Shown here one piece after another: positions 11,621 through 61,211 of a stretch of DNA of 64,000 nucleotides. The DNA lies in NCBI GenBank assembly GCA_045639065.1, contig JAZUCK010000016.1, forward strand, positions 7,705-71,704, given 5' to 3'. The stretch comes from Alphaproteobacteria bacterium. GTDB taxonomy: Bacteria; Pseudomonadota; Alphaproteobacteria; RF32; CAG-239. The notes under the pieces were generated by a model. It was given only the letters and a program-made list of their open reading frames with translations. It ran no database searches and was not told the DNA's origin. Made by a program: the position numbers and the translations under genes. Each line of letters begins with the position of its first letter. Position 1 is the stretch's first letter.

Positions 11621-11648
11621 TATTTATTTGCTGTAATACACTTTTAAT

Positions 11649-11685
11649 AACCTACTGTCCTTAACATCAGTAGGTTATTTTTTTA
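11649..11685 (+). terminator. Rho-independent terminator (aacctactg ...cagtaggtt + T-run)
   Basis: A 9-bp stem and T7 run lie 29 bp after the stop of the 261-aa ORF. Confidence 0.6.
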
Positions 11686-11745
11686 TTCAACCTATGCAAA
11701 AATTTACATAGGTTCTTTTTCTGCTCAAAAAGGCTAAAATTTACT

Positions 11746-11972
11746 AAGTTATTGAAAAATATAGAAGCAAGTTCGAAGATGTTGTAAAATAGGTGGCTGG
11801 ATTGGGTACTCCCGCTCATAATCTTCGCGGGTCCTCCTCGCGGCGTAGGGCTCGCACGTCGTTTTACTTGTGCTCACCAACTATCCGCTCCGAACCAAGT
11901 TGATTCGCCTTAAAACCACTCTCAATCCAACAAAAAAATCCTCCATGAAAGGAGGATTTTTTTGCTGGCTGG
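11746..11972 (+). repeat. about 230-bp GC-rich structured direct repeat, copy 2, overlapping the 3' end of tRNA-Gln
   Basis: See copy 1. Its terminator hairpin (11925-11962) abuts the minus-strand tRNA-Gln. Confidence 0.6.
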
Positions 11973-13463: not shown

Positions 13464-13581
13464 TGATTGTCTCCTAATAGCAAATTTATATTCATTATAT
13501 CATAATAAATATATAAAATCAAATTTCTTGACTTTTACTCAGTTTACCTTATTAAGTTCTTTGAACAAAGGAGCAAATGAA

Positions 13582-19148: not shown

Positions 19149-19151
19149 GAG

Positions 19152-20656: not shown

Positions 20657-21229
20657 ATGATGAAAAAAATTGTTTGTGTTCTGAGTGTGTTTTTTATGAT
20701 GGGGTGTTTTGGCGGATATAGCCCCGAAAGTACGTTTTATACATTACAAACTATTGAAAATGTGAAACCTTTGAGTCAAACAAGTGTGTTGATAGGTGTA
20801 GATTTGCCAGAGCTTCCGGAGTATGTTGACAGGCCTCAAATTGTTTCATTTTCATCAGTTAATTCCGAATTGAATATTGATGAAACAAATCGTTGGGGCG
20901 AAGATTTGGATATTATGCTGCAAAGAGTTATGGCTTCGGATTTGCGTGCTTATTTGCCAAAGGCCGGTATAAAACCAAGAACATCGTTGTTGGAAAAATA
21001 CAGATATATTTTAAATGTGTCGATTGCAAAGTTTGATTTAGTTGAAAATACAGCTTATTTTGAAGCTTTGTGGACACTTAAAAGCGGAAATACTTTTAAT
21101 ATAGCTTATAAAGGCAAAACTTCTTTAAGTATGACGGGTAATGACGAATATAGCGGATATGTTAAAGCTATGAGCGAAATGGTTAGTCAAATGTGCAAAC
21201 AAATCGCTCAAAAATTGACCAAAAACTAA
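20657..21229 (+). CDS. ABC-transport auxiliary lipoprotein (PqiC/DUF330-like)
   Basis: A lipobox (FFMMGC) is present and the size is about 190 aa. It sits immediately after mlaD, the typical position. Confidence 0.55.
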   Translation: MMKKIVCVLSVFFMMGCFGGYSPESTFYTLQTIENVKPLSQTSVLIGVDLPELPEYVDRPQIVSFSSVNSELNIDETNRWGEDLDIMLQRVMASDLRAYLPKAGIKPRTSLLEKYRYILNVSIAKFDLVENTAYFEALWTLKSGNTFNIAYKGKTSLSMTGNDEYSGYVKAMSEMVSQMCKQIAQKLTKN

Positions 21230-28880: not shown

Positions 28881-30041
28881 ATGTCGCCACTCGGAAAATT
28901 AACGTTAGCATTGATTGGTTTTAAGTTATTCGGCCTTGACGGCTTGCTTTTAGGCTTGTTTTTAGGACATATGTTTATTGATAAGACTTATGTTATCAGA
29001 AATATTGAAAAACAGATAAACAGCCTTGATGATATTATAAGAATCAAACTGCCTTATAAATACTACAAATATTATAATCGCTTAGATGGTAATATATGGG
29101 GAAAAATTTGGTGCGGTCTGCTCGGGCTTGTTTTGTTCGGCGTAATCGGATTTGCGCTGATGTTTGTTGTAGGACATATGGTTTTTGATATGCCTCAAAA
29201 TACCAAGATAAGAAAAGTTAAGAAGAAAATCGATCACTTTTTTGATAATAACTGGGGCAAGATATTAGGTGGTGTATTAGGATTTTTGTTGCATAGTGCG
29301 ATATTGATGTTTGTCGGTATAATTTTGGGATTTATAGCAGATTATCGCCGTCTTGAAGGTGCTAAACTTATGCCGTTTAATATCCTGAGAAATTATTGGC
29401 AAAAGATAAATCCGCTAAAACTTTGGCGTGATGCACAGGTCGGAGAACACAGACGCTATTTAGAGGTTATGGCGGCTTTGTCGGCATTGATTGTTGAGTC
29501 TGATGGTAAAATAAGTGACAAAGAAAGGAAAAAATTCTGTCAGGTCTTTGCGGTAAAGCCGGAGCAAAAATCATTTGTATATGAGATTTTTGAAAACAAA
29601 CAAAAACACAAGTTTTCTTTGGAAAAATATGCCGATATGTTGGAGGGGCTTACTCGACACAACGAAAGCTTAAAAGATGTTTCTGTCGAGAACTTGTTCA
29701 AAATTGCTTCTGCTGATGAAACCATAGGCGAAACAGAGATGCGATTGCTTAAAAAAGTGGCTAAAATTATCGGACTTGCCGATAGAGAGTTTGCTAGATT
29801 GAAAAAACAGTTTAAGCCGAATCCGATAAGCAAAAAACTTATGGCATCATACGATGTTTTGGGTGTTTCTTATGATGCGAGTATAGATGAAATTAAAGCA
29901 AGATGGAAAAAACTTATTGTTATTTACCATCCGGACAAATTGGCTAATGCCTCGGAAAATGAGATGAAAATTGCAACTAAAAGAATGGCCGAGATAAATT
30001 TGGCTTATCAGGAAATTGTAAAAGCAAAAGGAAAAAAATGA
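28881..30041 (+). CDS. djlA: DjlA-like membrane J-domain co-chaperone (multi-TM N-term, TerB-like middle, C-terminal J domain)
   Basis: The C-terminal J domain is YDVLGVSYDASIDEIKARWKKLIVIYHPDK. A TerB-like segment precedes it and about four TM helices lie at the N-terminus. Confidence 0.7.
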   Translation: MSPLGKLTLALIGFKLFGLDGLLLGLFLGHMFIDKTYVIRNIEKQINSLDDIIRIKLPYKYYKYYNRLDGNIWGKIWCGLLGLVLFGVIGFALMFVVGHMVFDMPQNTKIRKVKKKIDHFFDNNWGKILGGVLGFLLHSAILMFVGIILGFIADYRRLEGAKLMPFNILRNYWQKINPLKLWRDAQVGEHRRYLEVMAALSALIVESDGKISDKERKKFCQVFAVKPEQKSFVYEIFENKQKHKFSLEKYADMLEGLTRHNESLKDVSVENLFKIASADETIGETEMRLLKKVAKIIGLADREFARLKKQFKPNPISKKLMASYDVLGVSYDASIDEIKARWKKLIVIYHPDKLANASENEMKIATKRMAEINLAYQEIVKAKGKK

Positions 30042-30769
30042 GAAGAAAATTATTGCCTTATTATAGCGATAGAAAAAGCAAAATAGATATGATTGTTTTG
30101 CATTCGGTGGCGTATGACGTAGAAGAGGCAATAAAGTCTTTTTGTGATAATGAAGTGTCGTCACATTATATTATCGCCGAAGATGGCGAAATATGGCAAT
30201 TGGTTGGTGAAAAAAGACGAGCTCGACATGCAGGTGTGTCGTATTGGCAAGGAATTGAAGATATTAATTCACATTCAATAGGAATTGAGTTTTGTTCCAA
30301 AACCTTGGGACAGCAAAAATTTAAGCCGGCTCAAATAAAAGCAGGAATCAAGCTGATTAAAAGGCTGATAAAGAAATACAAAATAAGACCGGAAAATATT
30401 GTCGGACATTCTGATGTTGCTCCGACAAGAAAGGCTGATCCGGGTAAGGCTTTTTTCTGGAAGGAACTTGCTAAAGAGGGCATAGGATTTTGGTACAATT
30501 TGTCTGATGCAAAAAAAATAAATGATTTTTCGGTTGAAGAATTACTTGAGATTATCGGCTATGATACGAGTGATGTTTATGCATCGGCGTATGCTTTTTG
30601 TCGCAGATTTTTGCCGGATAAAGTGTCGGAAGTTAAAAGTGTTATCGAGCTTGTTGATAACGTCGGAAGAGCTGATGATAAATTGCTTGATGATGAAAAA
30701 TTTTTGCAAGTGTTAAAAGCTGTGGCTTACAAATATTGCAGAGAATCTAAAACGCCTTGCAAAATGTAG
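30038..30769 (+). CDS. ampD: N-acetylmuramoyl-L-alanine amidase, AmpD-like (amidase_2) with C-terminal extension
   Basis: A zinc amidase_2 motif is present (HSVA…GIEF…GHSDVAPTRKADPG). Confidence 0.7.
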   Translation: MRRKLLPYYSDRKSKIDMIVLHSVAYDVEEAIKSFCDNEVSSHYIIAEDGEIWQLVGEKRRARHAGVSYWQGIEDINSHSIGIEFCSKTLGQQKFKPAQIKAGIKLIKRLIKKYKIRPENIVGHSDVAPTRKADPGKAFFWKELAKEGIGFWYNLSDAKKINDFSVEELLEIIGYDTSDVYASAYAFCRRFLPDKVSEVKSVIELVDNVGRADDKLLDDEKFLQVLKAVAYKYCRESKTPCKM

Positions 30770-31185: not shown

Positions 31186-31313
31186 AAAAATAAGATTATG
31201 AAAATAATGAAATTTGTCAAGAAAGATAATAAATTTAACGCGAATACTAATTGAATTTTAACCAAAATAATTTAGAATCCGACTAAAAGTGTCAGATTGA
31301 GAGGTTTTTGCCG

Positions 31314-32630
31314 ATGAAATTAAAATTTTTTGTATGCTTGTTTGCCAGTTTGATTAGCTTTGGTGTTGCAAAGGCTGAGTTGGCTATTGATGTTAGCGGC
31401 GCAATGCGTGATCCGATGCCTATTGCCATACCAAGCATTATTCATGACGGATTTTTTATCGGTCAACAAGGCGATAAAATTTTAGATGTTGTTCAGGCCG
31501 ATTTAGAGCGTTCCGGTTTGTTTGAGGTTATTGACAAAGACAGCTATATCCAAGAGTTTTCCTCAATGGAACAAGAACCTGAATTTTTGGATTGGAAAGC
31601 AATAAAAGCTCAAGCCCTTATTCAAAGCGAAATAGAAGAAGTTGATGCAAATACTATTAAAGTTTCGTTCAGATTGTGGGATGTTTATGCCGAAAATCAA
31701 ATGGAAGGACAGTCTTTTACAACAACCAAGGATAATTGGCGCAGAATTGCTCATGTGATTTCTGATGCAATATATGAAAGATTGACAGGCGAAAAAGGAT
31801 ATTTTGATACAAGAATTGTTTATGTTTCGGAATCCGGTCCGGCAACAAAAAGAATTAAACGTTTGGCAATTATGGATCAAGATGGCGAAAATCACAAATT
31901 TTTAACTAATGGTGCGGCAATGGCTCTAACGCCTCGTTTTTCACCTAATCTACAAAAAATTACTTATATGTCTTATGCCGGAAATATTCCGAGAGTTTAT
32001 ATCTTAGATATTGAAACCGGCGAGCAGGAAGTTTTAGGCGATTTTCCGGGAATGACTTTTGCTCCTCGTTTTTCACCGGACAGTGATAAGGTTTTGTTAT
32101 CTTACGCCAGCAACGGAAAAAGTGATATTTATGAAATGGATTTGAAAAATAAAAAGAAAAAGAGATTAACTTATAGCGGTGCAATTGATACTTCGCCAAG
32201 TTATTCGCCTGATGGCAGTAAGATTGTTTTCAATTCGGACAGAGGTGGAAATCAACAGCTTTATGTAATGGATGCCGACGGCTCAAATGTTAAAAGAATA
32301 AGTTTCGGTAATGGCCGTTATGCAACACCGGTTTGGTCGCCACGAGGGGATTATATTGCTTTTACTAAAATGGCAGGAGGACAATTTTATATCGGTGTTA
32401 TGTATCCTGACGGAACAGGAGAACGTGTGTTGGCTTCGGGATATTTGGTTGAAGGACCTACTTGGTCCCCCAATGGTCGTGTCTTGATTTATTTTAGACA
32501 GGATAAAGGTCGAGGAAGGGCAACTCCACCGGTTAAATTATATTCAATAGATTTGACAGGGTATAATGAAAGACAAATTATTACACCTGCCGACGCATCT
32601 GATCCGGCATGGTCGCCGTTGTTACCTTAA
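31314..32630 (+). CDS. tolB: TolB periplasmic beta-propeller protein
   Basis: A signal peptide and N-terminal TolB domain are followed by repeated SP(D/R)G beta-propeller blades (FSPDG, YSPDGSK, WSPRGD, WSPNG). Confidence 0.85.
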   Translation: MKLKFFVCLFASLISFGVAKAELAIDVSGAMRDPMPIAIPSIIHDGFFIGQQGDKILDVVQADLERSGLFEVIDKDSYIQEFSSMEQEPEFLDWKAIKAQALIQSEIEEVDANTIKVSFRLWDVYAENQMEGQSFTTTKDNWRRIAHVISDAIYERLTGEKGYFDTRIVYVSESGPATKRIKRLAIMDQDGENHKFLTNGAAMALTPRFSPNLQKITYMSYAGNIPRVYILDIETGEQEVLGDFPGMTFAPRFSPDSDKVLLSYASNGKSDIYEMDLKNKKKKRLTYSGAIDTSPSYSPDGSKIVFNSDRGGNQQLYVMDADGSNVKRISFGNGRYATPVWSPRGDYIAFTKMAGGQFYIGVMYPDGTGERVLASGYLVEGPTWSPNGRVLIYFRQDKGRGRATPPVKLYSIDLTGYNERQIITPADASDPAWSPLLP

Positions 32631-36045: not shown

Positions 36046-39000
36046 TTGAGAAAAGTGAAAAAAGTTATTATCGGTGTTATATTGGCTTTGGTTTTGGCTA
36101 TCGGCGGAACATTTATTTATGTAATCAGTATTGACTGGAATCAGCATAAAGACAAAATATCTCAGCAGTTTTATAACTCAACCGGTAAACATATTACTTT
36201 TGTCGGAAATGTGAGTTTTAAAATTTTTCCAAAACCATATTTGAATGCAATTAATGCTAAAATATACAATTCCAATAACAAAAACGAAAAACCTCTGCTT
36301 GATATTAAAAATATCAATGCGGAATTGGATTTAATTCCGTTGCTTAAGGGTGAAGTTAATATAAATAAGATGGTTTTAGATGGTGTTACCATCAATATAA
36401 ACTGGGACAATAAAGGGTTAAATTGGCAAGGTGATTTAAGTGCTGATCAAAGACAGATGATGGAAGATACCAAAATGGTATTGAACAGTGTGTCTTTGAA
36501 GAATGCAAAAGTTAATTTTGAGGCTGACGGAGGCAATGTTAACTTTAGTCTTGATAATCTTAGTGGAGAAGTTATGGCCCAAAGTGTTTTCGGTCCTTTT
36601 AGAATTGAAGGTAATTATTTAAAATCTAATGATCCACAGGGGTTTGCAATTACAATCGGAAAAATTGAGGATAGTATGGCAACAACATTAAATGCCGTAT
36701 TTACTCATCCCAAATCCAGCAGTTACGTCAGATTTGACGGATCTTTTCAGCTATCAAACAGGGTCTTGAACGGAAATGTAGTTGTAGAATCACAAAAATT
36801 AAGTGATTTTGTTAACGATAATACCGATAAAGTAAAGCTTGATAATAAGTATAATAAACCGATTGTCGCAGGGTTTGATGTTGCACTTAATAAACAAATG
36901 ATTAATCTTAGCAATATTGTCGTAAAATACGAAGATACGCAAGGCGCAGGTACAATCCAAATACCAAATACGAATCTTGAAACGCCCCATGTTAAGGCTA
37001 GTTTTGAGTTTGCAGATTTAGATTTGAATCCGTTTGTTGATTATGTGAAGGGGTTTGTTAAAAAATATTCGGAAGAGCCTTTTGTATCAACTGCAAAGAT
37101 GAAATTTTCGGGTGATATAAAGTCGATAAGGGCTTCTTATGATAATCAGCTTTTTAAGAATTTGACAACTTCGTTTGAGATAAATGATAAAGGTGTCATA
37201 TTAGACGGGTTGAGTATAATATTGCCGGGAAATGCTCAGTTTGATATGAAGGGTAATATGTATCCTTATGATAATGAATTATATTATCAGGCAGATGTTT
37301 CTCTTAGTACCGAAGAGCTTATGCGCTTGCTTAAATGGCTTAAAATTGAGCCTAAGGCAACAGCTGCTTCTGTTTACAAAAAGATGCTGTTGACGGCAAA
37401 ATTGTCAGGTAATTTTGATAAAGTTCAAGTTACACCATTTAAGATTGTTTTGGATAATACAACGTTTAATGGTGATGCAGGATTGGTGTTGGGTGATAGA
37501 AAAGATATAATGCTCAACGTGAACGCCAATACACTTAATTTTGATAATTATATAAATTCAATCCCTGAAGAAATTAAAGTTAAGAATTTTGCTGAAAGGA
37601 TGAATTATCGTTTTTCAAAATTAGGAATGTTAAATGATTTTGATATGGTTCTTAATGCTGATGCCAATTTGGTTATTTATGAAAATCTACCGTTCGAAAA
37701 GGTAAAATTTAAAGGTAATATTTTACAGGGCAACATGGAAATAGATACTTTAACGGTTGAAAAAGTTGCTAATACAAGTCTTGATCTTAGTGGTAAAATA
37801 AGTGGTCTAGGCAGTAAACCGAATTTTGAAAATATGCAATATAGTGTTGAGACGCAAGATGTTGTTAATATGATTGAGAAATTCGGTCTTTATAAACCGG
37901 AAGTAGATTATAACAAATTTAGAGACTTGATAGCCAACGGAACACTGAATGGTGAGTTGGATAATTTTGGTATAAATACTCAATTTACATCAGGGGATTT
38001 AACAGTCAATTATGTCGGTTCGGTTGCTTTGGGCGATAAGATGAGTTTTGATGGTGGTTTGGAGGTGAAACACCCTGAAACCGTTACTTTAATGGAATCT
38101 GTCGGATTAAGTTACGAGCCGCAAGCTTCAAATTTGGGAATGTTTAGACTTAAGTCCAATATAAAAGGTAGTGTTGATAATCTTAATTTATCATCAATGG
38201 AATTAAATGCAGGGTATTCTAAATTTGATGGTAATGCATCTTATGATTTTAGAGGTACAAACAAAATTGCAAATGCAAATCTTAAGGTTAATAAGCTCGA
38301 AATAGAAAAATATTTGGTTAAAAATGATGACAAATTGCCTATAGGGGCAAAAATTGAGGGGGGAATAGCATCGTTTTTGAGTAAGCCGGCATGGAGTAAA
38401 GAAAAAATAAATTATACACCTTATGCGGATTGGGAATTTAAAGGTAAATTTGATGTTGCTGATTTGAGCTATAAAAATGAAATATTTGAAAAAGCGAAGT
38501 TTGATTTAGAAGTAAGCAAAGGAAGCGCAAATCTTTCTAATTTTGAAGCAGTGTATAAAAATACGCCGATTAAAGCAACTGCCATATTAAATATGCGTGA
38601 TGAGCCGAATGTCAATGTGGTCGTTGATATGCCGGAAGCAAATGTTTCTGATTTTTCGCTCGGGGGCAGAACATACAGTCTTAAAGAAGGAAATTTTAAG
38701 GCGTCGATTAACCTTAATTCAAAAGCAACAAGCGAGGATGATTTTGTTAATAATCTTAATGGTGTTGTTGATTTCGAAGCAAATAAGACCAGAGTGTTCG
38801 GAATGAATGTTAAGGCAATTTATGATGATGTTATTAAAAGAGATAAATCAGATGGATTGACTGAGTTTGCGAATGCACAAATTGCCAACGGGGTAACCGA
38901 ATTTGATAAGGTAAAAGGCAAACTTAATATTACCAATGGTGATTTTAAGATTGTTGACGGACAGCTAAGCGCTAACAATACAAAAGTTAGCGCAAGTGGC

Positions 39001-40161
39001 GATGGTAGTATAAAAAATTGGACTATAAATGCTTTGCTTGATATAAAGCATGATGAACCTAAATATCTTCAAAATTATACCATATCAATGAAAAATGCTA
39101 TGGATAATCCGGATGTAGAGATAGATGTATCAAAACTGTTTAATATCTTCAAAGCCAGAGAAGATCAAAAAGAGGCTGAGGCAAAGGCTTTGGTTGAGGC
39201 TGAAAAAATGCTTTTAACCGAACAAGTTGATGAACAAAAGAAAATTGCTGAGGGTTTGGTCAAAACCACCAGAGATAAGATGACCGCAGAAATTGATGAT
39301 AAAATTAAAAATGCATATAGTAATGAAGCGATAAAATCTTATGAAGAAATAAAAGTAGAGTTAAATAACTTTTTGACATCATTCTTAGACAGCGCCTTAG
39401 TTGTTAATAGCGATGAGGCAACAAAAGAGCAAATATCGATGCTTAAGGAAGTTAATAAAAAAGCACTTCAAGATATTGAGATTTTGCGTAATAAAAGCAG
39501 TCAGATTCATCTTATTGATTTGCAAAAACAAAACTCTGATGAGTATGAAAAAATAGTCAAGGTAAATGACGAGTTGAAACAGATTATTGCCGGTTACAAT
39601 GCAAATAATGCAACATATGAATCGAGATTGGCCGCTATTATTACAGACTATACTTTGGTTGGTGATAGTATTTATGTTGAATCTAAAAAGCAAATAGATT
39701 CAAAAATAAATGAATTAGAGGCTCTTAATAATGATATTGTAACAGCTCGTAATTTACAACAAGCTAATGGTACGGCCGATGAATATATAGAATTAAATGC
39801 TAAGATGAGTGAAGTGTTGGGTAAAATTACAACAGGAAAAGATGATCTTGAGGCTAAGGTAAAAGAGTTTGACAAGCTTATGGAACCGATTGTAAAACGA
39901 GAAGAAGATTTGTATCAATCCAAATTAGAGGAAGAAGAAAATCAACGCCTTATTAAAGAAAATACCGGTAGTATCTCGGTTAAGAAAACAGGTAAGAGAG
40001 TAACTGTTAAGCGCGATATTGAAGAGATTAAAGAGGCAAATGAAGAAATAAGCAATGACGAGGTTAAAGTAATTGATTTTACTAAGAAAAAAACTTCGGA
40101 AGATAAGTCTTCTGCGCAAAGTTCTAAAGGGGTTATAAAAAAAGGATACATTAACCGCTAA
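36046..40161 (+). CDS. giant AsmA-family outer-membrane biogenesis protein with long C-terminal coiled-coil/acidic region
   Basis: An N-terminal TM anchor plus AsmA-like beta-rich region runs ~1000 aa. The C-terminal ~350 aa are coiled-coil/KE-rich. The start codon is uncertain (TTG 36046 or GTG 36055). Confidence 0.65.
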   Translation: MRKVKKVIIGVILALVLAIGGTFIYVISIDWNQHKDKISQQFYNSTGKHITFVGNVSFKIFPKPYLNAINAKIYNSNNKNEKPLLDIKNINAELDLIPLLKGEVNINKMVLDGVTININWDNKGLNWQGDLSADQRQMMEDTKMVLNSVSLKNAKVNFEADGGNVNFSLDNLSGEVMAQSVFGPFRIEGNYLKSNDPQGFAITIGKIEDSMATTLNAVFTHPKSSSYVRFDGSFQLSNRVLNGNVVVESQKLSDFVNDNTDKVKLDNKYNKPIVAGFDVALNKQMINLSNIVVKYEDTQGAGTIQIPNTNLETPHVKASFEFADLDLNPFVDYVKGFVKKYSEEPFVSTAKMKFSGDIKSIRASYDNQLFKNLTTSFEINDKGVILDGLSIILPGNAQFDMKGNMYPYDNELYYQADVSLSTEELMRLLKWLKIEPKATAASVYKKMLLTAKLSGNFDKVQVTPFKIVLDNTTFNGDAGLVLGDRKDIMLNVNANTLNFDNYINSIPEEIKVKNFAERMNYRFSKLGMLNDFDMVLNADANLVIYENLPFEKVKFKGNILQGNMEIDTLTVEKVANTSLDLSGKISGLGSKPNFENMQYSVETQDVVNMIEKFGLYKPEVDYNKFRDLIANGTLNGELDNFGINTQFTSGDLTVNYVGSVALGDKMSFDGGLEVKHPETVTLMESVGLSYEPQASNLGMFRLKSNIKGSVDNLNLSSMELNAGYSKFDGNASYDFRGTNKIANANLKVNKLEIEKYLVKNDDKLPIGAKIEGGIASFLSKPAWSKEKINYTPYADWEFKGKFDVADLSYKNEIFEKAKFDLEVSKGSANLSNFEAVYKNTPIKATAILNMRDEPNVNVVVDMPEANVSDFSLGGRTYSLKEGNFKASINLNSKATSEDDFVNNLNGVVDFEANKTRVFGMNVKAIYDDVIKRDKSDGLTEFANAQIANGVTEFDKVKGKLNITNGDFKIVDGQLSANNTKVSASGDGSIKNWTINALLDIKHDEPKYLQNYTISMKNAMDNPDVEIDVSKLFNIFKAREDQKEAEAKALVEAEKMLLTEQVDEQKKIAEGLVKTTRDKMTAEIDDKIKNAYSNEAIKSYEEIKVELNNFLTSFLDSALVVNSDEATKEQISMLKEVNKKALQDIEILRNKSSQIHLIDLQKQNSDEYEKIVKVNDELKQIIAGYNANNATYESRLAAIITDYTLVGDSIYVESKKQIDSKINELEALNNDIVTARNLQQANGTADEYIELNAKMSEVLGKITTGKDDLEAKVKEFDKLMEPIVKREEDLYQSKLEEEENQRLIKENTGSISVKKTGKRVTVKRDIEEIKEANEEISNDEVKVIDFTKKKTSEDKSSAQSSKGVIKKGYINR

Positions 40162-53022: not shown

Positions 53023-54027
53023 TTATTCAGCAGCAATGCTTATAACATTATTGAAGTTTAAGCAATTTTGAACAGCCCAAATTACTTTCAATGCATCTAA
53101 AGCTTGTTTGCCGGTAATTCTTGGTGTTTCTTTACCTAAAATGCAGTTTGCAAAATGGTTTAATTCGGAATTTAAGGGTTGTGCTTGCATGATGAACAAG
53201 TTTTCAATACTGCCTTTTAAGCCATAACGCATATTTTCAGGCAAATCGTTTTGGTTTACACCATGCATACGACCTTGAGAGTGAACAGCAATACTTTGGT
53301 TGATGAAGTCCATATCATAGTAGTTGTTTGATGTAGTAACGTTTAATGTGCGAACACGTGATTGAGTAATACGTGAAGCAGTAAAGCTTGCTGATACACC
53401 ATTTTCAAATTCTACCAAAGCGTTGATGTAATCTTTGCCGGAAGGGAATTTTTCATTTTTGACTGATGAAGCATATACGTTTTTAACCGGTGATTTTACC
53501 AATGATAAAACAACTTCGGCATCGTGAATCATCAAATCCATTGCAACGTCAACATCGGTAATGCGACCGGAAGCTGCAGACATGCGGCGAGCTTCGAGAG
53601 AGCAAATTTCGCTGTTGTTTAAGATTTTGTGCATTTGTTCTACAGCCGGATTGAACTGTTCAATGTGACCAACGAGCAATGTAACATTGTTATTTTTGGC
53701 GGCATTGATTAAACGCATACATTCTTCTTGAGATGTTGCAAGAGGTTTTTCAATAAGGCAGTGAATGCCTTTGTTTAAGAAAAATTCACCAACGGCGGCA
53801 TGAGTAACAGATGTGGTTACTACGCTAACAGCATCAACAGCTTCGGCAACTTCTTCTAATGAAGAAAATGCTTTAATACCGAAAGCTTCGGCAGCTGATT
53901 TGGCTGCTTCAGGGAAAATATCATATACACCTACCAATTCAAAATTTGATAAGTTTTTATATGTTCTTAAATGGTTTTTACCCATCATACCTGCGCCGAT
54001 TACGGCAACTTTAATTGGATTATTCAT
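53023..54027 (-). CDS. Gfo/Idh/MocA-family NAD(P)-dependent oxidoreductase
   Basis: An N-terminal Rossmann VAVIGAGMMGKNH is followed by the EKP motif (LIEKPLA) and a C-terminal alpha/beta domain. Confidence 0.75.
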   Translation of the reverse strand: MNNPIKVAVIGAGMMGKNHLRTYKNLSNFELVGVYDIFPEAAKSAAEAFGIKAFSSLEEVAEAVDAVSVVTTSVTHAAVGEFFLNKGIHCLIEKPLATSQEECMRLINAAKNNNVTLLVGHIEQFNPAVEQMHKILNNSEICSLEARRMSAASGRITDVDVAMDLMIHDAEVVLSLVKSPVKNVYASSVKNEKFPSGKDYINALVEFENGVSASFTASRITQSRVRTLNVTTSNNYYDMDFINQSIAVHSQGRMHGVNQNDLPENMRYGLKGSIENLFIMQAQPLNSELNHFANCILGKETPRITGKQALDALKVIWAVQNCLNFNNVISIAAE

Positions 54028-54148
54028 TTACTTGAGTCCTTTTATTTTGTTTGTAGAAAATTTATTTTGGTTTACATATAACAATTATTTTGATAAAAAG
54101 CATTTAAATTCTTGTTTCAAATTGTTACAAAACTTGAGGAACTTTATT

Positions 54149-55912
54149 ATGATTAAACGTGTTGCATTATATTTGGCGCTGATTGGCGGAATCTCTATGG
54201 TTGCGGCTTGTTCGGGAAATAAAAAATCTTTGGGTGAGGCATTAAACACCAATGATTTGGTTGCTTCTTATGAGGTAGAATCGCTGCCGAAAACCGTAAA
54301 TGTGTATAATGCAATGGCCCGTGCAGCTAAATATAACTCTGACGTTTCGGCTCAAAATACTTTGAAAAAAATGTATAACGGTGATGAGAATCCGAAAAAA
54401 ATTGCCGAAGGTATAATTTCGGCATCTCAATCAAAAGAAAAATTAGAGCGTGCTGTTAAAGCTATGGATTTTGCCGATTTGTATGCAATGAGCGTTTTAA
54501 CCAATAATCAAAAATATATTGAAGATACATTGTATGCAAAGTCAGCTCAAAATTTGAGTATAGAAGCAATAAAGTTACATAGAGAAGAAATATTTGCCGC
54601 TAATAAAATTAAAGAAATTGATCGAATTATCAATCGATATGGTAAAATCTTAAAAGATTTGAATACAAGAATGGAAAAAGATGCTTCTTTGACGGTTGAT
54701 GAAATTAACTATCGTAAAAATTTGGAAGTTGCCTTAAACAGATTGGCCGAAATAAAGAATCAATTGGTTTTTGTACGTAAAGAATATGTTTCTTTGATTA
54801 AGGCAAAGGAAAAAGAATTGCGCTTGGAAGGAAAGCGTTTTTATGAATTAGAAGATTTTGATAAACGTTATACTCCTGATATATTCCAAGATTCTGCAAT
54901 TTCAAATCGTAGAGAGTTTTCTTTAGCAAAAGAAGAGTTAGGCTCGTTTAATGCATCAAAGGCAAGACGTCAGGCATTTGTCGACTATCCGTTGATTGCC
55001 CGACTTGACGTAAATGGTTTGAAAATTGAAGACAATCGCTATGAAAACGAGCTGTTTAACAAGGCTCAGCGTGTAACACTTAACTTGTTGCAAGCTGTGG
55101 AGAATTTTCAAAATAAACCCTCAAATGAGCAGTTGAAGCAAAAAGTTTTTGATGAATTAGCCGCTTTGGTTATTACTCAAGTTGAAGTTATGTACCGTTT
55201 GGTAGAAAAAGCTACTTTTGATTATGAGGCTAATCAATACAAAATAGCCGAAGCTAAAAAAGATGTTAAGGCTATGCAAAAGAAATGTGCTTCAAACTAT
55301 TATGAAAAAATCGATTTGTTGAATAAAGAAATAGAATTGATTTCTTTGGAGCAAGAGGAAGCTAATTTGTTGGCTCAAAGAGGTGCTTATTTGCGTAATC
55401 TATACTATATGGCAGGTTTAACACCGTTTGATAAAAATGTTTTGAGAGCCAAAATCAGTGATATTGAAACAGTATTGAAGCAGGCCTTTAATAAGGATTT
55501 GATTACCATGCTTTCATCGGTAAAAGATAATCCGAAATGGGATGATGGCGGCAATGCTTGGGCTCATAAAGATAATTGGTTGGAAGAGTTATTAAAAGAC
55601 GAGACCAAAAACAAGAAGACCAGCAAAGCAAAAACTGTTTCGACAGCATCAAAATCCGTTAAAACCGTTACAAAAGCCTCACATCATACAGTTATGCAGT
55701 TTGGTGCTTTTAGTGATGTAGATAATGCAACTGCAGAACAAATGCTTATTCAAAAGGCTGTACCGTCTTTGAATGGTTATGATATGTATATTGAACAAGC
55801 GAATGTTAATGGTAAATTGTATCATCGTTTAATGTTAAAGGCCGAAGCTGAAAAATTGCAAAAATTATGTAATGATGTTATTGATGCCGGATTTAATTGT
55901 ATTTTGAAGTAA
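54149..55912 (+). CDS. SPOR-domain lipoprotein with long coiled-coil region
   Basis: The lipobox is LIGGISMVAAC. About 450 aa are coiled-coil. The C-terminal SPOR domain carries VMQFGAFSDVDNATAEQM…YHRLMLKAEAEKLQKLC. The upstream part of the track ORF (53813-54148) is antisense to the oxidoreductase and was rejected. Confidence 0.6.
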   Translation: MIKRVALYLALIGGISMVAACSGNKKSLGEALNTNDLVASYEVESLPKTVNVYNAMARAAKYNSDVSAQNTLKKMYNGDENPKKIAEGIISASQSKEKLERAVKAMDFADLYAMSVLTNNQKYIEDTLYAKSAQNLSIEAIKLHREEIFAANKIKEIDRIINRYGKILKDLNTRMEKDASLTVDEINYRKNLEVALNRLAEIKNQLVFVRKEYVSLIKAKEKELRLEGKRFYELEDFDKRYTPDIFQDSAISNRREFSLAKEELGSFNASKARRQAFVDYPLIARLDVNGLKIEDNRYENELFNKAQRVTLNLLQAVENFQNKPSNEQLKQKVFDELAALVITQVEVMYRLVEKATFDYEANQYKIAEAKKDVKAMQKKCASNYYEKIDLLNKEIELISLEQEEANLLAQRGAYLRNLYYMAGLTPFDKNVLRAKISDIETVLKQAFNKDLITMLSSVKDNPKWDDGGNAWAHKDNWLEELLKDETKNKKTSKAKTVSTASKSVKTVTKASHHTVMQFGAFSDVDNATAEQMLIQKAVPSLNGYDMYIEQANVNGKLYHRLMLKAEAEKLQKLCNDVIDAGFNCILK

Positions 55913-55982
55913 AAAAAGTTTGTAAAAATACAAATTTTGAGTTATTGTATTAGATAGAGTAACCTGTCGGGAATAAAAGTCT

Positions 55983-57110
55983 ATGTCTGATAACGATACG
56001 CTTAGTAATATTAGATTAAAAATAAAACAAAGCCAAGAAGACATTGTAGAAGGTTTGCCTGAAGAGCTTTCTACGGATTTTTCGTGGAGCCGTGTTTCTC
56101 AAAGCGGTATTTCGGGAAAAAGCTCGTTAGAAGGTAATAGTTTGTCTTTTGTCGGTAAGAATCTTGAAGGCGGAAAGTTTGCGGAAGAAAATTTGCAAGG
56201 GGCAAATTTTAGTGTGTCTAATCTTACAGGAGTTGATTTTAGCGGTGCCGATTTAAGAGGTGTTGACTTTAGTGGTGCTAATCTTACCGGCGCTAACCTT
56301 TCGGGTGCAGATTTGACCGGTGCAATTTTATCAGGCGCAGTATTACATAATACCAATTTTTCAAAAGCAAAGTTAAACGGTGTCAGACTGACTGATGCTG
56401 ATTTGGAAAATGTAATTTTACTTGATATTGAAATTGATGCCCTTGGAATTGAAGAGCTTCAGGCTCTGATTGAATATTTGGCAAAATATTATCCGCATAA
56501 GCTCAATCTTTCCAAGATGAACGTTTCGTTATTGGATTTTACCAGAATCGATTTATCACAAGTTGATTTAACCGGAGTTGATTTTACAGGTGTTAACTTT
56601 ACCGGTGTAAGTATTACCGGACTTGATCTGAGCCAATGTAAAATTACGCCAGAGCAAATCGCTCAAGCGTTGGGAAGAGTGCCGTCACCTGAGGAATTGG
56701 CAAGGATTTTAGCGCCTAAGAAAAAGAAAAAAGGCGGTAAAGGCTTTGAAGATATTGCTATGATGTTTCAAGGCGGTAAGGACTATTTGGTGTGGGATTT
56801 TACCAAAGATAAAGGTATTTCAATTGAACAGTTAATGGCGGTAGGTAAAAAAATATTCAGTCATGGTAAAAAACCTCAGGCAAAAGAAGAGAGCAAAGAA
56901 ACTAAAGAAGTTAATGAAGATGCTGAGGATATGAAGGCAAAATCACATAATGAAGAGTTGCGTAAAATAATCGAGGAACGTAAACAAAAAGAGCTGCAAG
57001 CCAGAAAAGCCATGAAAGAAAGTGCCGAAAAAGAAACTCAAGAAAAGCCGAAAGTTGAGATTAAAAAAGAGCGTATCATTCCTAATAGAAGTTTTGACAG
57101 GGGTAGATAA
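55983..57110 (+). CDS. pentapeptide-repeat protein with Lys/Glu-rich C-terminal tail
   Basis: It has more than 20 tandem A(D/N)LxG/F pentapeptides (ANFSVSNLTGVDFSGADLRGVDFSGANLTGANLSGADLTGAILSGAVL…). Confidence 0.85.
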   Translation: MSDNDTLSNIRLKIKQSQEDIVEGLPEELSTDFSWSRVSQSGISGKSSLEGNSLSFVGKNLEGGKFAEENLQGANFSVSNLTGVDFSGADLRGVDFSGANLTGANLSGADLTGAILSGAVLHNTNFSKAKLNGVRLTDADLENVILLDIEIDALGIEELQALIEYLAKYYPHKLNLSKMNVSLLDFTRIDLSQVDLTGVDFTGVNFTGVSITGLDLSQCKITPEQIAQALGRVPSPEELARILAPKKKKKGGKGFEDIAMMFQGGKDYLVWDFTKDKGISIEQLMAVGKKIFSHGKKPQAKEESKETKEVNEDAEDMKAKSHNEELRKIIEERKQKELQARKAMKESAEKETQEKPKVEIKKERIIPNRSFDRGR

Positions 57111-57112
57111 TA

Positions 57113-59437
57113 ATGGCTGCTGACGTTAATATCAGTCAGGAAAAAAGTAAAACAAAAGCTTTGCTAAATATTTTGTTGATATTGTTGGCCGTTTATTTGG
57201 CCTTTTTTGCTTTATCCGCAATATGTTTCGCTTTGTTAGATATTTCATGCCGAGTTGGTATTATTGAGCATAAGGACACTCTTCATATCAGATGGCTTAA
57301 ATTTATATCTAATCCTTTATATATATTCAGTTTGTATGGCAGTTGGTGGAGTTTGTTAGTAAAAAGTTTTGCTGACGGTGCTGTCAGACTTGTGTTGATT
57401 ACACCGTTTTTTGTTCCTGCGGGTATGGTTTTTGCCGGAGTTTATACGTTCTTAAAACGCAGATATTCATTTGCGTTGTGGTATATTATCAATCATCATT
57501 TTGCCAAGATGTCAGATGTTGAAAATATGGGTATAAAAAAAGGCCCATTTATGATGTTGGGACGTTTTGAAGGCTCGTTGCTTGGAGTTAAGCCGTCAGA
57601 ATCGGTATTATGTATCGGTGAAATGGGAACAGGAAAGACATCCAGTGTGGCAATTCCTTCTGTATTGCATTCTGATAATGCCTGCCTTATTTGTGTCGAC
57701 ATGACGGGTTTGTTGCCAAAATATACAGCAGGAAAACGAACAAGGTTGGGTAAAACCTTTTATTTTAACTGGGATTTGGAAGATGATGTTGAAAAGGAAA
57801 TATATTATCCCAGATGGAATCCTCTTTGCGAAGAAAATATGCCGAATGCTCGTGATGAACGTGATGCCTATATTAAACGTATTGCCGGATATTTGATTGA
57901 TGTTAATGAGGTGGATAGAAATGATTATTGGAATATTTTGGCAAACTCGATAATCGTTGCTTTCTTAGCTTATTGGGATGCTAAAGTTTTTCAAGCCAAA
58001 ACGAATGATTTTTTCTTAAACAAATTGGTTGAAGGGCGCCATTTAACAGCAGAAGAAAAGAAGATTTTGAAGAGTTATTATGTATTGATGCAAAAATCAT
58101 ATACAAAAGATGCAATGGAGGCTTTAGACGATAATACAATAAATCAAGACAGCTATGTTCCTATCGGAAGTTGGGCCGGTATACCGGAACAATGGGTCGG
58201 AAAAGACGTTTGTTTCGCAAGTATTACCGATTGGATTATTGATAATTATATATCTTCAAGAGATGAAAAAGGAAAAGATTGGAAATCGTGGTTTGAGTCA
58301 TTGTTAAGGGAATCTGTATTCTTCGGATATGGAAATCTGGCAATCAACGGTTTCAGACAGGTTTTAGCTTTGTCGACACAACAACGCCAACTTGCATTTA
58401 CTTCGGTTATGAAACCTTTTAAGATTTTTACTAATCAGGCACTCCGTGAAAGAACAAACGGCAATGATTTGAATATTGATGATATTAGAGGTATTTATGA
58501 CGAAGCCACGAAGAAATGGCGCCCGATAACAATTTATTCACTAGCTAATAACTATAATTCCAAGATATTGAACCAAATGTTTTTGGACGAGGTCTTGTAT
58601 AGAAATATTTATCAGCCTGCTAAAAGCGGACAGGGGGCTTTACCGTTGGTTTTAGTTTTAGATGATGTGGGACATAATCTGAAGCTGAAAAATTTAATGG
58701 CACTCTTAGAAAAAGGAAAGTCTAAAAAGATATCAGCTTTGCTTTTGTGTAACTCGATGAATTTGGTCGAAAATACATACAGTAAAAAAGAGCTGGAATG
58801 TGTGGTTATGAATACCGCATATAAGATTGTTAAAGCTCCTGACAACCAAAAACTAAGTCGTCAGTTGGATAAGTTGGCTACGTTTGCCACAAAATCAGTG
58901 CAGATACCAAAGGTAAAAAATAAAAAACGTAAATTGCGCAAAAAACATTTTGCCGACGCAAGTTATTTTCACAGGCTTGCACTTGATTTTAAGCTTAGTA
59001 AAAGAATTAAGATTGATACTAGATCACATCAAATTGTTTTAGCAGAAGGTTTTTATCACAGACCGATATTGGCCGAAAATGTGTTTTTTGCCGAAGATGA
59101 AAAATTTAGCAGATGGGCTGTGCTTGATGCTGATTATACCTTGCCTGATGATGTTATGGAAAGAAAAAACGAATTTGATTTGCGTACTCCGAAAATCAGC
59201 GAAATATTTGATAATAAAGATTTGGGTATGGATGATATTGTTCAACTTGATCAGTATATGAGTATGGTTTTTGATGAGGTTGAAACAGAGAAAAAGAAAA
59301 AAAGAGAAGAGCTTGAAAAAAAAGTAGTGCCGGAAACAGAAATAAAAGATGAAGCCGTTGATGATTGGTGGCTTGAAGAAGATGCTTTCGGTGTAGAAAA
59401 AAATGATAAAAAAAATCCTTTTGGTGCAAAAAAATAA
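57113..59437 (+). CDS. membrane-anchored P-loop NTPase resembling a type IV secretion coupling protein (VirD4/TraG/TraD-like), divergent catalytic motifs
   Basis: Two or three N-terminal TM helices are followed by Walker A GEMGTGKTSS, a PRWNPL motif, and a Walker-B-like LVLVLDDVGHNL. The stop of the pentapeptide gene (TAA) is separated from this ATG by 2 nt (TAATAATG). Confidence 0.45.
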   Translation: MAADVNISQEKSKTKALLNILLILLAVYLAFFALSAICFALLDISCRVGIIEHKDTLHIRWLKFISNPLYIFSLYGSWWSLLVKSFADGAVRLVLITPFFVPAGMVFAGVYTFLKRRYSFALWYIINHHFAKMSDVENMGIKKGPFMMLGRFEGSLLGVKPSESVLCIGEMGTGKTSSVAIPSVLHSDNACLICVDMTGLLPKYTAGKRTRLGKTFYFNWDLEDDVEKEIYYPRWNPLCEENMPNARDERDAYIKRIAGYLIDVNEVDRNDYWNILANSIIVAFLAYWDAKVFQAKTNDFFLNKLVEGRHLTAEEKKILKSYYVLMQKSYTKDAMEALDDNTINQDSYVPIGSWAGIPEQWVGKDVCFASITDWIIDNYISSRDEKGKDWKSWFESLLRESVFFGYGNLAINGFRQVLALSTQQRQLAFTSVMKPFKIFTNQALRERTNGNDLNIDDIRGIYDEATKKWRPITIYSLANNYNSKILNQMFLDEVLYRNIYQPAKSGQGALPLVLVLDDVGHNLKLKNLMALLEKGKSKKISALLLCNSMNLVENTYSKKELECVVMNTAYKIVKAPDNQKLSRQLDKLATFATKSVQIPKVKNKKRKLRKKHFADASYFHRLALDFKLSKRIKIDTRSHQIVLAEGFYHRPILAENVFFAEDEKFSRWAVLDADYTLPDDVMERKNEFDLRTPKISEIFDNKDLGMDDIVQLDQYMSMVFDEVETEKKKKREELEKKVVPETEIKDEAVDDWWLEEDAFGVEKNDKKNPFGAKK

Positions 59438-59508: not shown

Positions 59509-60822
59509 ATGGAAGATACTTTGTTTTCGGCAAAAATAAGACGTCCGTTGGCTGACAGGCTTCGTCCGCAAAAATTGAGCGAGGTCGTCGGACAGGATCA
59601 TATTATAGGCAATGATGCTCCTTTGGGACGTATGATTTCATCCGGCAAGGTTACATCGTTTATTTTGTGGGGACCTCCGGGATGTGGTAAAACAACCATT
59701 GCAAGACTTATAGCCGAGAATACCAATTTGTATTTTGAACAAATTTCGGCAGTTTTTTCCGGCGTGGCCGATTTAAAACGAGTTTTTCAATATGCGAAAG
59801 AACGCCGTGCCAATCAAGGAATCGGAACATTATTGTTTGTTGATGAAATTCACAGATTTAACAAATCTCAACAGGACGGTTTTTTGCCTTATGTAGAAGA
59901 TGGAACAATTATATTGGTCGGTGCAACAACGGAGAATCCGTCGTTTGAACTTAATGCGGCTCTTCTTTCAAGATGTCAGGTTTTTGTGCTTAATCGTCTT
60001 AATGAACAAGATTTTGAAGAATTGCTGCAACGTGCCGAAACAGAACAAGGTGTAAAGTTGCCGGTTGATGATGAAGCCAGAGAATTTATGAAGCAAACGG
60101 CAGACGGAGACGGCAGATATATCTTAAACTTGGCCGAGAGTGTTTGGAGTTATGCCAAAGAAGGTGAAATTTTTGATAAAGATAATATTGTTAAAATAAT
60201 TCGTTCACGAGCACCTGTTTATGACAAAGGACGTGACGGTCATTATAATTTAATATCAGCGGTTCATAAATCCTTACGCGGTTCTGATGTTGATGCGGCA
60301 CTTTATTGGGTGGCGCGTATGATAAAATCGGGAGAAGATCCTAAATATATTTTACGTCGGTTGACCAGATTTGCGGTGGAAGATGTGTCTTTGGCTGAAC
60401 CGGGAGCGGTGGTGCAGGCTATTGCTTGTTGGGATACGTATGAAAGACTTGGTTCTCCCGAGGGGGATTTGGCAATTATGCAACTGACAGCGTATTTAGC
60501 TACAGCACCAAAGTCTGCCGGAGTGTATAAAGCAATGCATGCAGCATTTGATTTGGCTAAATCTACAGGTTCGTTAATGCCTCCGAAAAATATATTAAAT
60601 GCTCCGACAAAATTGATGAAGGATTTGGGATATCACGAAGGATATGAATATGATCCCGATTGTGAAGACGGTTTTTCGGGAGCAAATTATTTTCCGGAAG
60701 GAATGCGTCGACCAAAATTGTATCATCCGGTAGATAGGGGTTTTGAGCGTGAGATTAAAAAGCGTGTGGAATATTTTGATAAGCTTCGTAAAGAAAAACA
60801 GGCACAAAAAGGTGAAAAATGA
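59509..60822 (+). CDS. rarA: replication-associated recombination protein A (AAA+ ATPase)
   Basis: It has Walker A GPPGCGKTT, Walker B LFVDEIHRFNK, and the MgsA C-terminal domain. Confidence 0.9.
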   Translation: MEDTLFSAKIRRPLADRLRPQKLSEVVGQDHIIGNDAPLGRMISSGKVTSFILWGPPGCGKTTIARLIAENTNLYFEQISAVFSGVADLKRVFQYAKERRANQGIGTLLFVDEIHRFNKSQQDGFLPYVEDGTIILVGATTENPSFELNAALLSRCQVFVLNRLNEQDFEELLQRAETEQGVKLPVDDEAREFMKQTADGDGRYILNLAESVWSYAKEGEIFDKDNIVKIIRSRAPVYDKGRDGHYNLISAVHKSLRGSDVDAALYWVARMIKSGEDPKYILRRLTRFAVEDVSLAEPGAVVQAIACWDTYERLGSPEGDLAIMQLTAYLATAPKSAGVYKAMHAAFDLAKSTGSLMPPKNILNAPTKLMKDLGYHEGYEYDPDCEDGFSGANYFPEGMRRPKLYHPVDRGFEREIKKRVEYFDKLRKEKQAQKGEK

Positions 60823-61211
60823 GTGAAAGAAACAAAAAAGTTATATATGTCAGCAAAGAAACGGATGAAAAAATTACCGATGAATTGCGCGCGGAAATAA
60901 TGTCTCATGAGATAGAAATCAGGGTTATAGAAAAGGAGCCTCTCGTGATAGGGTTAAGCGGAGAGGAAACTCGTAAAATAGATGTGTTAAAAGAGGATAA
61001 TCCTGAAATAATAGTTTTAGAAAAAGAGCCTATTGTGATGGAATTAAGAGGAGAAGAACTTCTTAAAATGATGGAAGAACATATAGAAATAATAGACCCG
61101 TCAATAGAATATGAAAATAAGCCAAAGAAGAAAAAATATGTGCAAAAAAGAATTGGTGATGTGAGCAAAGCAAAAATTAAAAATGTGAGAGGAAAAAGAT
61201 ATGGCCGTTAA
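60819..61211 (+). CDS. hypothetical small protein with internal tandem repeat (…EIRVIEKEPLVIGLSGEETRKI… / …IIVLEKEPIVMELRGEELLKM…)
   Basis: A 130-aa ORF. It overlaps the rarA stop (ATGA) and overlaps the rluC/D start by 11 bp. Confidence 0.45.
   Translation: MSERNKKVIYVSKETDEKITDELRAEIMSHEIEIRVIEKEPLVIGLSGEETRKIDVLKEDNPEIIVLEKEPIVMELRGEELLKMMEEHIEIIDPSIEYENKPKKKKYVQKRIGDVSKAKIKNVRGKRYGR

Follow-up and report, generated by a model that had tools for sequence, protein, structure and literature searches.

We have analysed a 64,000-nucleotide stretch of contig JAZUCK010000016.1 (GenBank assembly GCA_045639065.1, positions 7,705 to 71,704 of the forward strand) from an Alphaproteobacteria bacterium, referred to here as the window, in which three consecutive genes encode a lipoprotein with a SPOR domain (P1), a pentapeptide-repeat protein (PRP) and a homologue of the VirD4/TraG coupling proteins of type IV secretion systems (T4SSs), which we call the type IV coupling protein (T4CP)-like protein. 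All homologues of the last of these that are linked to a PRP have lost two catalytic residues that every homologue without such linkage keeps, and the PRP and T4CP genes occur together in every informative related locus. The interpretation that we favor, and for which we consider the chances about evenly balanced, is that the T4CP-like protein is a domesticated, hydrolysis-impaired coupling protein that acts as a membrane receptor or scaffold for PRP, usually together with the TolC-derived SPOR lipoprotein. The three open reading frames (ORFs), which a first-pass annotation of the window had described as lying on one strand, were confirmed at the stated coordinates:

54149..55912, + strand: P1, a 587-aa lipoprotein with a TolC/OEP-family helical domain and a C-terminal SPOR domain
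55983..57110, + strand: PRP, a 375-aa cytoplasmic pentapeptide-repeat protein (PF00805)
57113..59437, + strand: T4CP-like protein, a 774-aa VirD4/TraG homologue with degenerate catalytic motifs (Pfam, structural model and Foldseek)

The coupling-protein homologue and its pentapeptide-repeat partner

The first-pass annotation had credited the 774-aa protein with the architecture of a coupling protein, and this is borne out by both profile and structural comparisons. It matches PF02534 (T4SS-DNA_transf) at 33.4 bits against a cut-off of 20.1 and PF12696 (TraG-D_C) at 24.1 bits against a cut-off of 22, and a Foldseek search with its AlphaFold2 model (pLDDT 79, built on 28 homologues) returned Cagβ (E 1e-12), TrwB (6e-8) and DotL (2e-6; 6sz9), with HerA, VirB4, DndH, TdpAB and HerA-type defence ATPases among the lower-ranked matches. 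KAP, Zot and other P-loop families are excluded by these Pfam and fold matches. The protein lies far below the cut-offs of the NCBIfam VirD4/TraG models, and searches of PDB sequences with either the single protein or the family profile gave nothing significant, the best being Cagβ at E 0.2. On profile and fold matches it is a true but very divergent member of the VirD4/TraG coupling-protein family, with the following features:

57146..57454, + strand: N-terminal membrane domain, with hydrophobic residues 12–52 and 89–114 (by hydropathy) and a conserved loop between them
57617..57640, + strand: Walker A, GEMGTGKT, with Lys175 kept
58652..58669, + strand: Walker B, LVLDDV, with the catalytic Glu replaced by Asp518
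58748..58756, + strand: CNS (residues 546–548), GQD in canonical relatives, with the sensor Gln replaced by Asn547
59363..59422, + strand: DWWLEEDAF(x8)NPF, the C-terminal motif that ends the acidic extension

Hydropathy and the model agree on N-terminal transmembrane helices (H13–48 and H93–129 in the model) followed by a cytoplasmic nucleotide-binding domain (NBD) and an all-α domain; P68, Y75 and W78 are invariant in the loop between the helices. The two transmembrane helices, the P-loop NBD, the all-α domain and the YPRWNP sequence are shared with Cagβ, R388 TrwB and the Rickettsiales RvhD4, and YPRWNPL is invariant in the T4CP-like family as well as being present in the aligned canonical relatives. 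The differences lie in the catalytic motifs, where the alignment shows GEMGTGKT … LVLDDV … LLCNS in the window protein and APPGTGKT … FVLDEF … IGQD in canonical relatives. The P-loop Lys is present in 83/83 PRP-linked homologues and in 28/28 that are not PRP-linked. The second acidic residue of Walker B, however, is a Glu in all 28 homologues not linked to a PRP and in none of the 83 that are (Asp in 73, Asn in 9 and Gly in 1), and the sensor position follows the same distribution, being a Gln in 28/28 of the former and 0/83 of the latter (Asn in 61, Asp in 13 and others in 9). The altered signatures (DD and CNS) that had been noted from the window protein are therefore not a one-off, and on this alignment the change is clade-wide and coincident with PRP linkage. 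In one lineage (L070 and L073) the Walker A glycine has gone as well (GKENSLKT and GNQKTLKT), yet both the PRP and the C-terminal motif remain. It is the Walker B glutamate of ASCE ATPases that activates the attacking water, and with both this residue and the sensor Gln lost throughout the clade, ATP hydrolysis is therefore probably slow or absent; the PRP-linked T4CPs probably bind nucleotide and hydrolyse it poorly.

A further departure from canonical VirD4 proteins is at the C-terminus, where the window protein has an extra acidic extension of approximately 90 aa. Every PRP-linked T4CP has such an extension, ending in DWW-x-E-x-x-F-(x8-10)-NPF, and canonical VirD4 proteins are without it. 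Residues W752, W753, E756, F759, N768, P769 and F770 are invariant, and even the distant L070 protein keeps the motif as AWWMDEDVF…NPF.

PRP matches PF00805 (Pentapeptide) at 123 bits in three stretches of tandem A(D/N)LXX repeats, and hydropathy reveals no signal peptide, transmembrane or other hydrophobic segment. The repeats form two blocks (approximately residues 55–145 and 181–225) that are split by a conserved helical insert and followed by a Lys-rich region and a charged tail; the parts conserved over 61 orthologues are the two repeat blocks, the helical insert (EELQALIEYLAKYYPHKLNL), ITPEQIAQALGRVP, the Lys-rich stretch and the tail:

57066..57107, + strand: Arg-rich C-terminal tail of PRP, …ERIIPNRSFDRGR

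The consensus of this tail is …R-I-I-P-x-R-x-x-D-R-G-R, and it reads …RIPRQDRGR in the distant L070 copy. The net charge of the repeat part is -10. Right-handed β-helix repeats (PF00805) and a net acidic repeat part are shared with Qnr/MfpA, PipB/PipB2 and cREM-4, whereas the conserved helical insert, Lys-rich region and Arg-rich tail are unique to PRPs of this type. The NCBIfam scores of the window PRP fall far below the cut-offs for Qnr (48.7 against 240), MfpA (42.3 against 360) and PipB (61.3 against 274), and also for HetL. A relationship to DotG/IcmE was considered and rejected, the NCBIfam match (22.5 bits against a cut-off of 750) being to repeats only.

A search of 5.8 billion proteins recovered 78 clusters of full-length T4CP-like homologues (740–795 aa) with identities down to 29%, and those that are named all come from metagenome-assembled genomes (MAGs) of uncultured 'Alphaproteobacteria bacterium'. 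A further 63 loci from species-representative genomes and 52 from metagenome contigs were obtained from human, ruminant and other gut samples, including Proteobacteria bacterium CAG:495. Classification of 124 loci with hidden Markov models (HMMs) for P1, PRP, T4CP, VirB10 and VirB11 gave the following gene arrangements:

P1-PRP-T4CP, collinear on one strand: 80 loci
PRP-T4CP, contig too short upstream to show P1: 5 loci
PRP-T4CP, P1 clearly absent: 2 loci (L051 and L112)
solitary virD4 without PRP ('group A'): 19 loci
virB10-virB11-virD4: 7 loci
T4CP on a contig too short upstream to classify: 9 loci
OEP-SPOR lookups without T4CP: 2 loci

The co-occurrence of PRP and ATPase in relatives, which had been proposed as a check, is thus seen wherever the locus is informative, and the association extends to the catalytic motifs, as every locus with a PRP has a degenerate T4CP and every locus without one has a canonical T4CP. 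The two genes are also closely spaced (median gap 6 nt, with 83 of the 88 in the range -44 to +26), with a longer median gap of 73 nt between P1 and PRP. The window junction had been described as coupled at TAATAATG; this string is present, but the genes abut, with the stop codon, a 2-nt spacer and the start codon reading ...GGT AGA TAA TA ATG. Of the translational coupling that had been proposed, the tight spacing is observed, and strict coupling is a plausible extrapolation from it. The RGR codons of the PRP tail (AGAGG…) double as the likely Shine-Dalgarno sequence of the T4CP gene. A promoter and terminator scan of 53.9–59.7 kb gave counts near the shuffled expectation and is uninformative on operon structure.

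The farthest relatives of the T4CP-like protein (L065, L069, L107 and L119–121) are encoded in virB10-virB11-virD4 operons, and those of L065 and L069 match PF02534 at 171–180 bits compared with 33 bits for the window protein. In a neighbor-joining tree built on the NBD and all-α region the PRP-linked T4CPs are monophyletic, with the AT-rich L070 branching first, and root-to-tip distances are 0.57 for PRP-linked, 0.28 for group A and 0.17 for virB-linked proteins. An insertion in the all-α domain (approximately residues 297–350) is found in the PRP-linked T4CPs and in group A but not in the virB-linked genes. As judged from these comparisons, the T4CP-like protein is derived from a chromosomal alphaproteobacterial virD4.

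The solitary virD4 genes of group A, which are on gut- or rumen-type contigs, have intact DE and Q motifs (loci L063, where the two genes are at 8226–9743 and 9752–11908, L074, L076–L078, L083, L104, L106, L110 and L118). At most of these loci virD4 is preceded by a conserved 365–505-aa membrane protein of unassigned function, with N-terminal hydrophobic stretches, a charged low-complexity middle and a C-terminal GDWLADEExFNGExPLWFSE..HRVSP, for which neither a Pfam nor a PDB sequence match was found. Its C-terminal motif is similar to DWWLEEDAF…NPF at the end of the T4CP-like protein and is too short for homology to be judged.

All three genes have dN/dS values of 0.03–0.16, and we conclude that they are under purifying selection and are not pseudogenes. 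They have nonetheless diverged three to four times as far as their flanking genes, with mean protein divergences of 0.59, 0.42 and 0.60 for the three genes compared with 0.14 for MgsA and 0.22 for GFO. When the flanking housekeeping genes are controlled for, partial rate correlations are 0.70 for P1-T4CP, 0.68 for PRP-T4CP and 0.51 for P1-PRP, compared with 0.29 for a housekeeping control pair.

The SPOR lipoprotein

The mechanical ORF for P1 is 699 aa long, starting at a GTG at 53813, and overlaps a divergent oxidoreductase gene. The N-termini of the homologues begin at the ATG at 54149 and a GAGGA lies 9 nt upstream of it; by this alignment the ATG is the P1 start and the extension (53813–54148) is an artefact. 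The features of P1 and the divergent neighbor are:

54149..54211, + strand: signal peptide and lipobox …SMVAAC, with a hydrophobic N-terminus; Cys21 is invariant in 38 homologues
54296..55528, + strand: TolC-like two-repeat helical domain (approximately residues 50–460)
55688..55909, + strand: SPOR domain (approximately residues 514–587), with Cys574 and Cys584 invariant
53023..54027, - strand: GFO/IDH/MocA oxidoreductase, divergent from P1 and its neighbor in related loci

The first-pass annotation had described the upstream gene as a SPOR-domain coiled-coil lipoprotein. The lipoprotein and SPOR assignments hold, as in addition to the invariant Cys21, PF05036 (SPOR) is matched by 16 of the 38 family members, and the AlphaFold2 model (pLDDT 81) ends in a β-α-β-β-α-β domain that superimposes on the SPOR domain of RlpA with an rmsd of 1.6–2.0 Å. 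The coiled-coil part does not, and gives way to a relationship with TolC. Window P1 itself has no Pfam match, and neither it nor any of the 38 family members matches PF02321 (OEP) at E<=0.1, but the model contains two long-helix repeats, and a search of 1.84 billion representatives with the profile of the 38 homologues recovers true PF02321 OEP proteins, including OEP+SPOR fusions of 620–770 aa. On profile and model evidence P1 is a TolC/OEP-family derivative with a SPOR domain.

P1 thus resembles the outer membrane factor lipoproteins (TolC, OprM, CusC and NodT) in its lipobox and two-repeat long helices, and departs from them in its added SPOR domain, in having no nearby MFP, RND or ABC partner genes, and in its hairpins. 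Alignment shows that P1 proteins of the gut clade are without approximately 45 residues that form the first β-hairpin of their OEP-SPOR relatives, and the second hairpin region is mostly helical in the model; this makes it unlikely that proteins of the clade build a TolC-type 12-strand barrel in the outer membrane. With RlpA, FtsN, DamX and CwlC it shares the C-terminal domain and the conserved Cys pair, and differs in the fusion of this domain to a TolC-family one; binding of glycan and targeting to the septum are putative for P1. We also considered whether P1 or PRP might be a diverged VirB10 or VirB11, which they resemble in size and position, and reject this because VirB10 and VirB11 HMMs match no ORF in the triad loci and, for P1, because it is TolC-like.

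The annotation had grouped the three genes into a compact envelope-associated module, and this grouping is seen in 80 loci, but the lipoprotein is not obligatory. L051 and L112 have the pair without P1, and OEP-SPOR homologues are found where the pair is absent. At L072 (8806–12304) an OEP homologue lies beside the same divergent GFO/IDH/MocA gene with neither PRP nor T4CP, and at L071 (10001–11869) an OEP-SPOR homologue stands alone, also with neither. We therefore regard the PRP-T4CP pair as the core and P1 as separable from it. The GFO/IDH/MocA gene adjoins P1 or its OEP-SPOR relative in L001, L002, L003, L005, L070 and L072, and the L072 arrangement suggests an older GFO-OEP association. 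P1 has occupied this chromosomal site for longer than the PRP-T4CP pair, of which it is a probable partner.

The basal lineage L070 (8001–15061, from JGI metagenome 3300049398) is very AT-rich and has the order GFO on the minus strand, an OEP-SPOR protein of 658 aa that retains β-hairpin segments, an opposite-strand 173-aa gene, a PRP of 437 aa and a T4CP-like protein of 1005 aa. This last has the broken Walker A noted above and a long acidic low-complexity insert, with WW…NPF kept.

The chromosomal site

The triad lies among housekeeping genes on both sides, and its flanks are syntenic in relatives down to 29% identity; the typical order is CarD, Hsp33, RecX, TruA and GFO, then the triad, then MgsA/RarA, CrcB, RluC and AsmA. 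No integrase, relaxase or repeats were seen at the triad site, and the GC content of the three-gene region (0.33–0.37) is the same as that of the remaining window. PADLOC has no family matched by P1, PRP or T4CP.

We searched for a T4SS that the T4CP-like protein might serve. Among the other window ORFs of at least 120 aa, the set covered by our Pfam scan, none belongs to the VirB, Trb, Dot or relaxase families, and HMMs find neither VirB10 nor VirB11 within ±10 kb of approximately 85 triad and related loci. A genome scan returned no second VirD4-like locus in any triad-bearing species genome, so that each has one. The designation of the ATPase as an orphan therefore holds only for the 64 kb and, as regards VirB10 and VirB11, for the ±10 kb neighborhoods.

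The remaining 38 window ORFs that reach 120 aa either encode housekeeping proteins or lack a Pfam match. The housekeeping genes include TolQ/R, TolB, MlaEFD, PntAB, pyruvate kinase, an AsmA-family protein and ribosomal protein L17, together with rpoB and rpoC, which were assigned by eye from translation and ORF size. Many genes of the region concern envelope lipids and transport, among them MlaEFD at 18042–21229 and the gene for a 1371-aa AsmA-family protein at 36046–40161 (+); a second AsmA-family gene, of approximately 700 aa, follows the triad after a few kb in related loci (15049–17148 in L001, for example). The Tol-Pal genes do not lie together, as TolQ, TolR and a 310-aa ORF with no Pfam match in the TolA position lie within 2231–4362, and TolB (within 31308–32630) is 27 kb away, just after an Amidase_2 (N-acetylmuramoyl-L-alanine amidase) gene at 30038–30769. 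ORFs with no Pfam match (130–415 aa) are present at 9175–10422 (-), 10835–11620 (+), 12387–13463 (-) and 60819–61211 (+). The 130-aa ORF contains an internal repeat (…EKEPLVIGLSGEE… / …EKEPIVMELRGEE…) and sits where L001 and L002 have crcB. A 523-aa protein encoded at 13279–14850 (+) has only partial matches to Hsp70/MreB-like actin-fold ATPases; its ORF overlaps the 3' end of the opposite-strand ORF at 12387–13463, and its start is uncertain.

Possible functions of the pair

We propose that the T4CP-like protein is a descendant of a chromosomal alphaproteobacterial VirD4 whose role as a motor in secretion or conjugation would have been lost. As it retains a membrane anchor, a P-loop and the fold of a coupling protein, it is probably still able to bind nucleotide and to assemble into an inner-membrane ring, where it may serve as a nucleotide-dependent receptor or scaffold for the PRP encoded just upstream. 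PRP would offer an acidic DNA-like β-helix, a basic region and an Arg-rich tail that resembles VirD4-type receptor signals. The acidic WW…F…NPF extension of the T4CP-like protein is a likely docking peptide by analogy with the C-terminal tails of TraD and DotL, and the charges of the two proteins are complementary, being +6 over PRP residues 236–300 and -8 over the T4CP tail of the window protein. P1 probably forms a helical tube in the periplasm, anchored to both the outer membrane and peptidoglycan, and is likely to be a periplasmic partner in most lineages, but not all, because its evolutionary rate tracks that of the coupling protein.

There are partial parallels for such an arrangement. 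A precedent for a PRP acting with a coupling protein, and the only one that the literature yielded, is cREM-4 of Rickettsia typhi, which is reported to interact with RvhD4 (PMC11077975). DotL binds IcmS/W/LvgA and the C-terminal tail of TraD binds TraM, so that in both a C-terminal extension of a coupling protein docks a dedicated cytoplasmic partner, as may be the case here; the partner in this instance would be a PRP rather than an IcmSW-type adaptor or relaxosome protein, and the catalytic motifs of DotL and TraD are intact, both proteins working with full T4SSs. In EssC/EccC of type VII secretion systems, degenerate FtsK/SpoIIIE-type ATPase domains serve as substrate-binding or regulatory modules and not as motors. 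These domains are of the same superfamily and have degenerate catalytic motifs, but EssC keeps at least one active domain in a defined secretion system, whereas here the sole NBD is degenerate.

Several observations weigh against the receptor or scaffold interpretation. An Asp in place of the Walker B Glu is no proof that hydrolysis is lost, and the membrane-domain loop keeps residues common to canonical VirD4 proteins in the alignment, so that docking on inner-membrane parts of a T4SS is still conceivable. Our T4SS search covered the 64 kb and the ±10 kb neighborhoods rather than whole genomes, and a VirB/Rvh machine encoded elsewhere is possible. Overlap with the ribosome-binding site could account for part of the conservation of the PRP tail; we note that the tail is also kept at loci with a spacer of more than 20 nt and a separate GGAG. 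The covariation is suggestive only, as it may just reflect three fast-evolving proteins in one lineage, and P1 is both absent from L051 and L112 and separated from PRP by an opposite-strand gene in L070.

Much of this would fit an ordinary, divergent coupling protein of an Rvh/VirB-type T4SS encoded elsewhere in the genome, with PRP an effector or adaptor recognized through its Arg-rich tail and P1 an accessory envelope component, a reading that we regard as possible but on balance improbable. Rickettsiales scatter their vir genes over the chromosome, the protein is of the VirD4 family with distant relatives in virB10-virB11-virD4 operons, its loop is canonical-like, and with no second VirD4 in the same MAGs it would be the sole coupling protein if a T4SS exists. 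The positively charged tail of PRP is like VirB/D4 signals, and the PRP-containing cREM-4 is among the proteins reported to interact with RvhD4 in Rickettsia typhi (PMC11077975). The arguments on the other side are indirect: neither the catalytic Glu nor the sensor Gln is left in any of the 83 PRP-linked homologues and Walker A is degraded in one lineage, there is no T4SS gene among the window ORFs scanned, VirB10 and VirB11 are not found within ±10 kb of the triad loci even though they adjoin virD4 in canonical relatives, there is likewise no adjacent relaxase, the sister group A is also solitary, and the tight one-to-one pairing with a single, obligate upstream PRP is unlike an effector repertoire. 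To our knowledge, the coupling proteins of working systems keep both the catalytic Glu and the sensor Gln.

Two further possibilities involve all three proteins. We think it unlikely that the triad forms a T4SS-independent envelope machine, in which a nucleotide-gated VirD4-derived ring, a cytoplasmic DNA-mimic PRP and a periplasmic, barrel-less TolC-derived tube pinned by SPOR would act together; such a machine would tie the state of the cytoplasm to the architecture of the outer membrane or septum, and in the basal lineage, whose OEP-SPOR protein keeps β-hairpin segments, it might export a substrate. A minimal trans-envelope exporter that dispenses with VirB altogether, the VirD4-derived ring feeding a TolC-family conduit through which PRP, another protein or DNA would leave the cell, is very doubtful: a T4CP homologue and a TolC-family lipoprotein lie together in 80 loci, the P1-T4CP rate covariation is the highest of all pairs and the L070 OEP-SPOR protein keeps β-hairpin segments that are deleted in window P1, but with the first hairpin gone from the gut clade a TolC-like 12-strand pore is unlikely, the motor residues are lost, a periplasmic adaptor gene is absent, and P1 and the pair can each occur without the other. 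A septal module, with SPOR targeting denuded septal glycan and an FtsK-superfamily ring acting with a DNA-mimic PRP in chromosome clearance or topoisomerase coordination, strikes us as a shade less probable again. T4CPs do belong to the FtsK/HerA superfamily, HerA is among the structural matches, the genes are core, housekeeping-like and syntenic, and Qnr/MfpA-type PRPs mimic DNA and bind gyrase; however, no DNA-pumping residues are left, the window PRP scores far below the Qnr and MfpA cut-offs, the SPOR domain sits on P1, which is dispensable in two loci, and there is no division gene in the neighborhood. Although T4CP genes are typical of integrative and conjugative elements and integrative and mobilizable elements, and defence ATPases (DndH, TdpAB and HerA-type) appear among the lower structural matches, we give hardly any credence to a mobile element carrying its own T4CP or to an anti-phage or anti-plasmid defence island with a HerA/FtsK-like ATPase. 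Down to 29% identity the genes keep one position, with the same housekeeping neighbors, which largely refutes both, and the absence of integrase, relaxase and repeats from the site, the unremarkable GC content, the lack of a PADLOC match, the strong purifying selection and the single copy per genome all point the same way.

As had been said in the first-pass annotation, the PRP-T4CP-P1 gene set cannot be assigned to a described system; we found no description of it in the literature searched, and as far as that literature shows it is undescribed. It would be categorically new only if T4SS independence and a trans-envelope complex were demonstrated. The usual view of coupling proteins is of ATP-driven gatekeepers that type IV secretion and conjugation cannot do without, and here a whole clade has kept one over the long term, as a core gene under purifying selection, after the loss of its catalytic residues and of neighboring vir genes and with the gain of a fixed PRP partner and a new C-terminal motif, a likely docking peptide. 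PRP gains a defined genetic partner, and P1 is a TolC-family protein with part of its barrel lost and a SPOR domain added. These genes are carried by Alphaproteobacteria of the gut and rumen that are common but uncultured, CAG:495 among them, and if the receptor or scaffold interpretation is true the carriers would provide a clear natural case of the conversion of a secretion ATPase into a non-motor receptor or scaffold.

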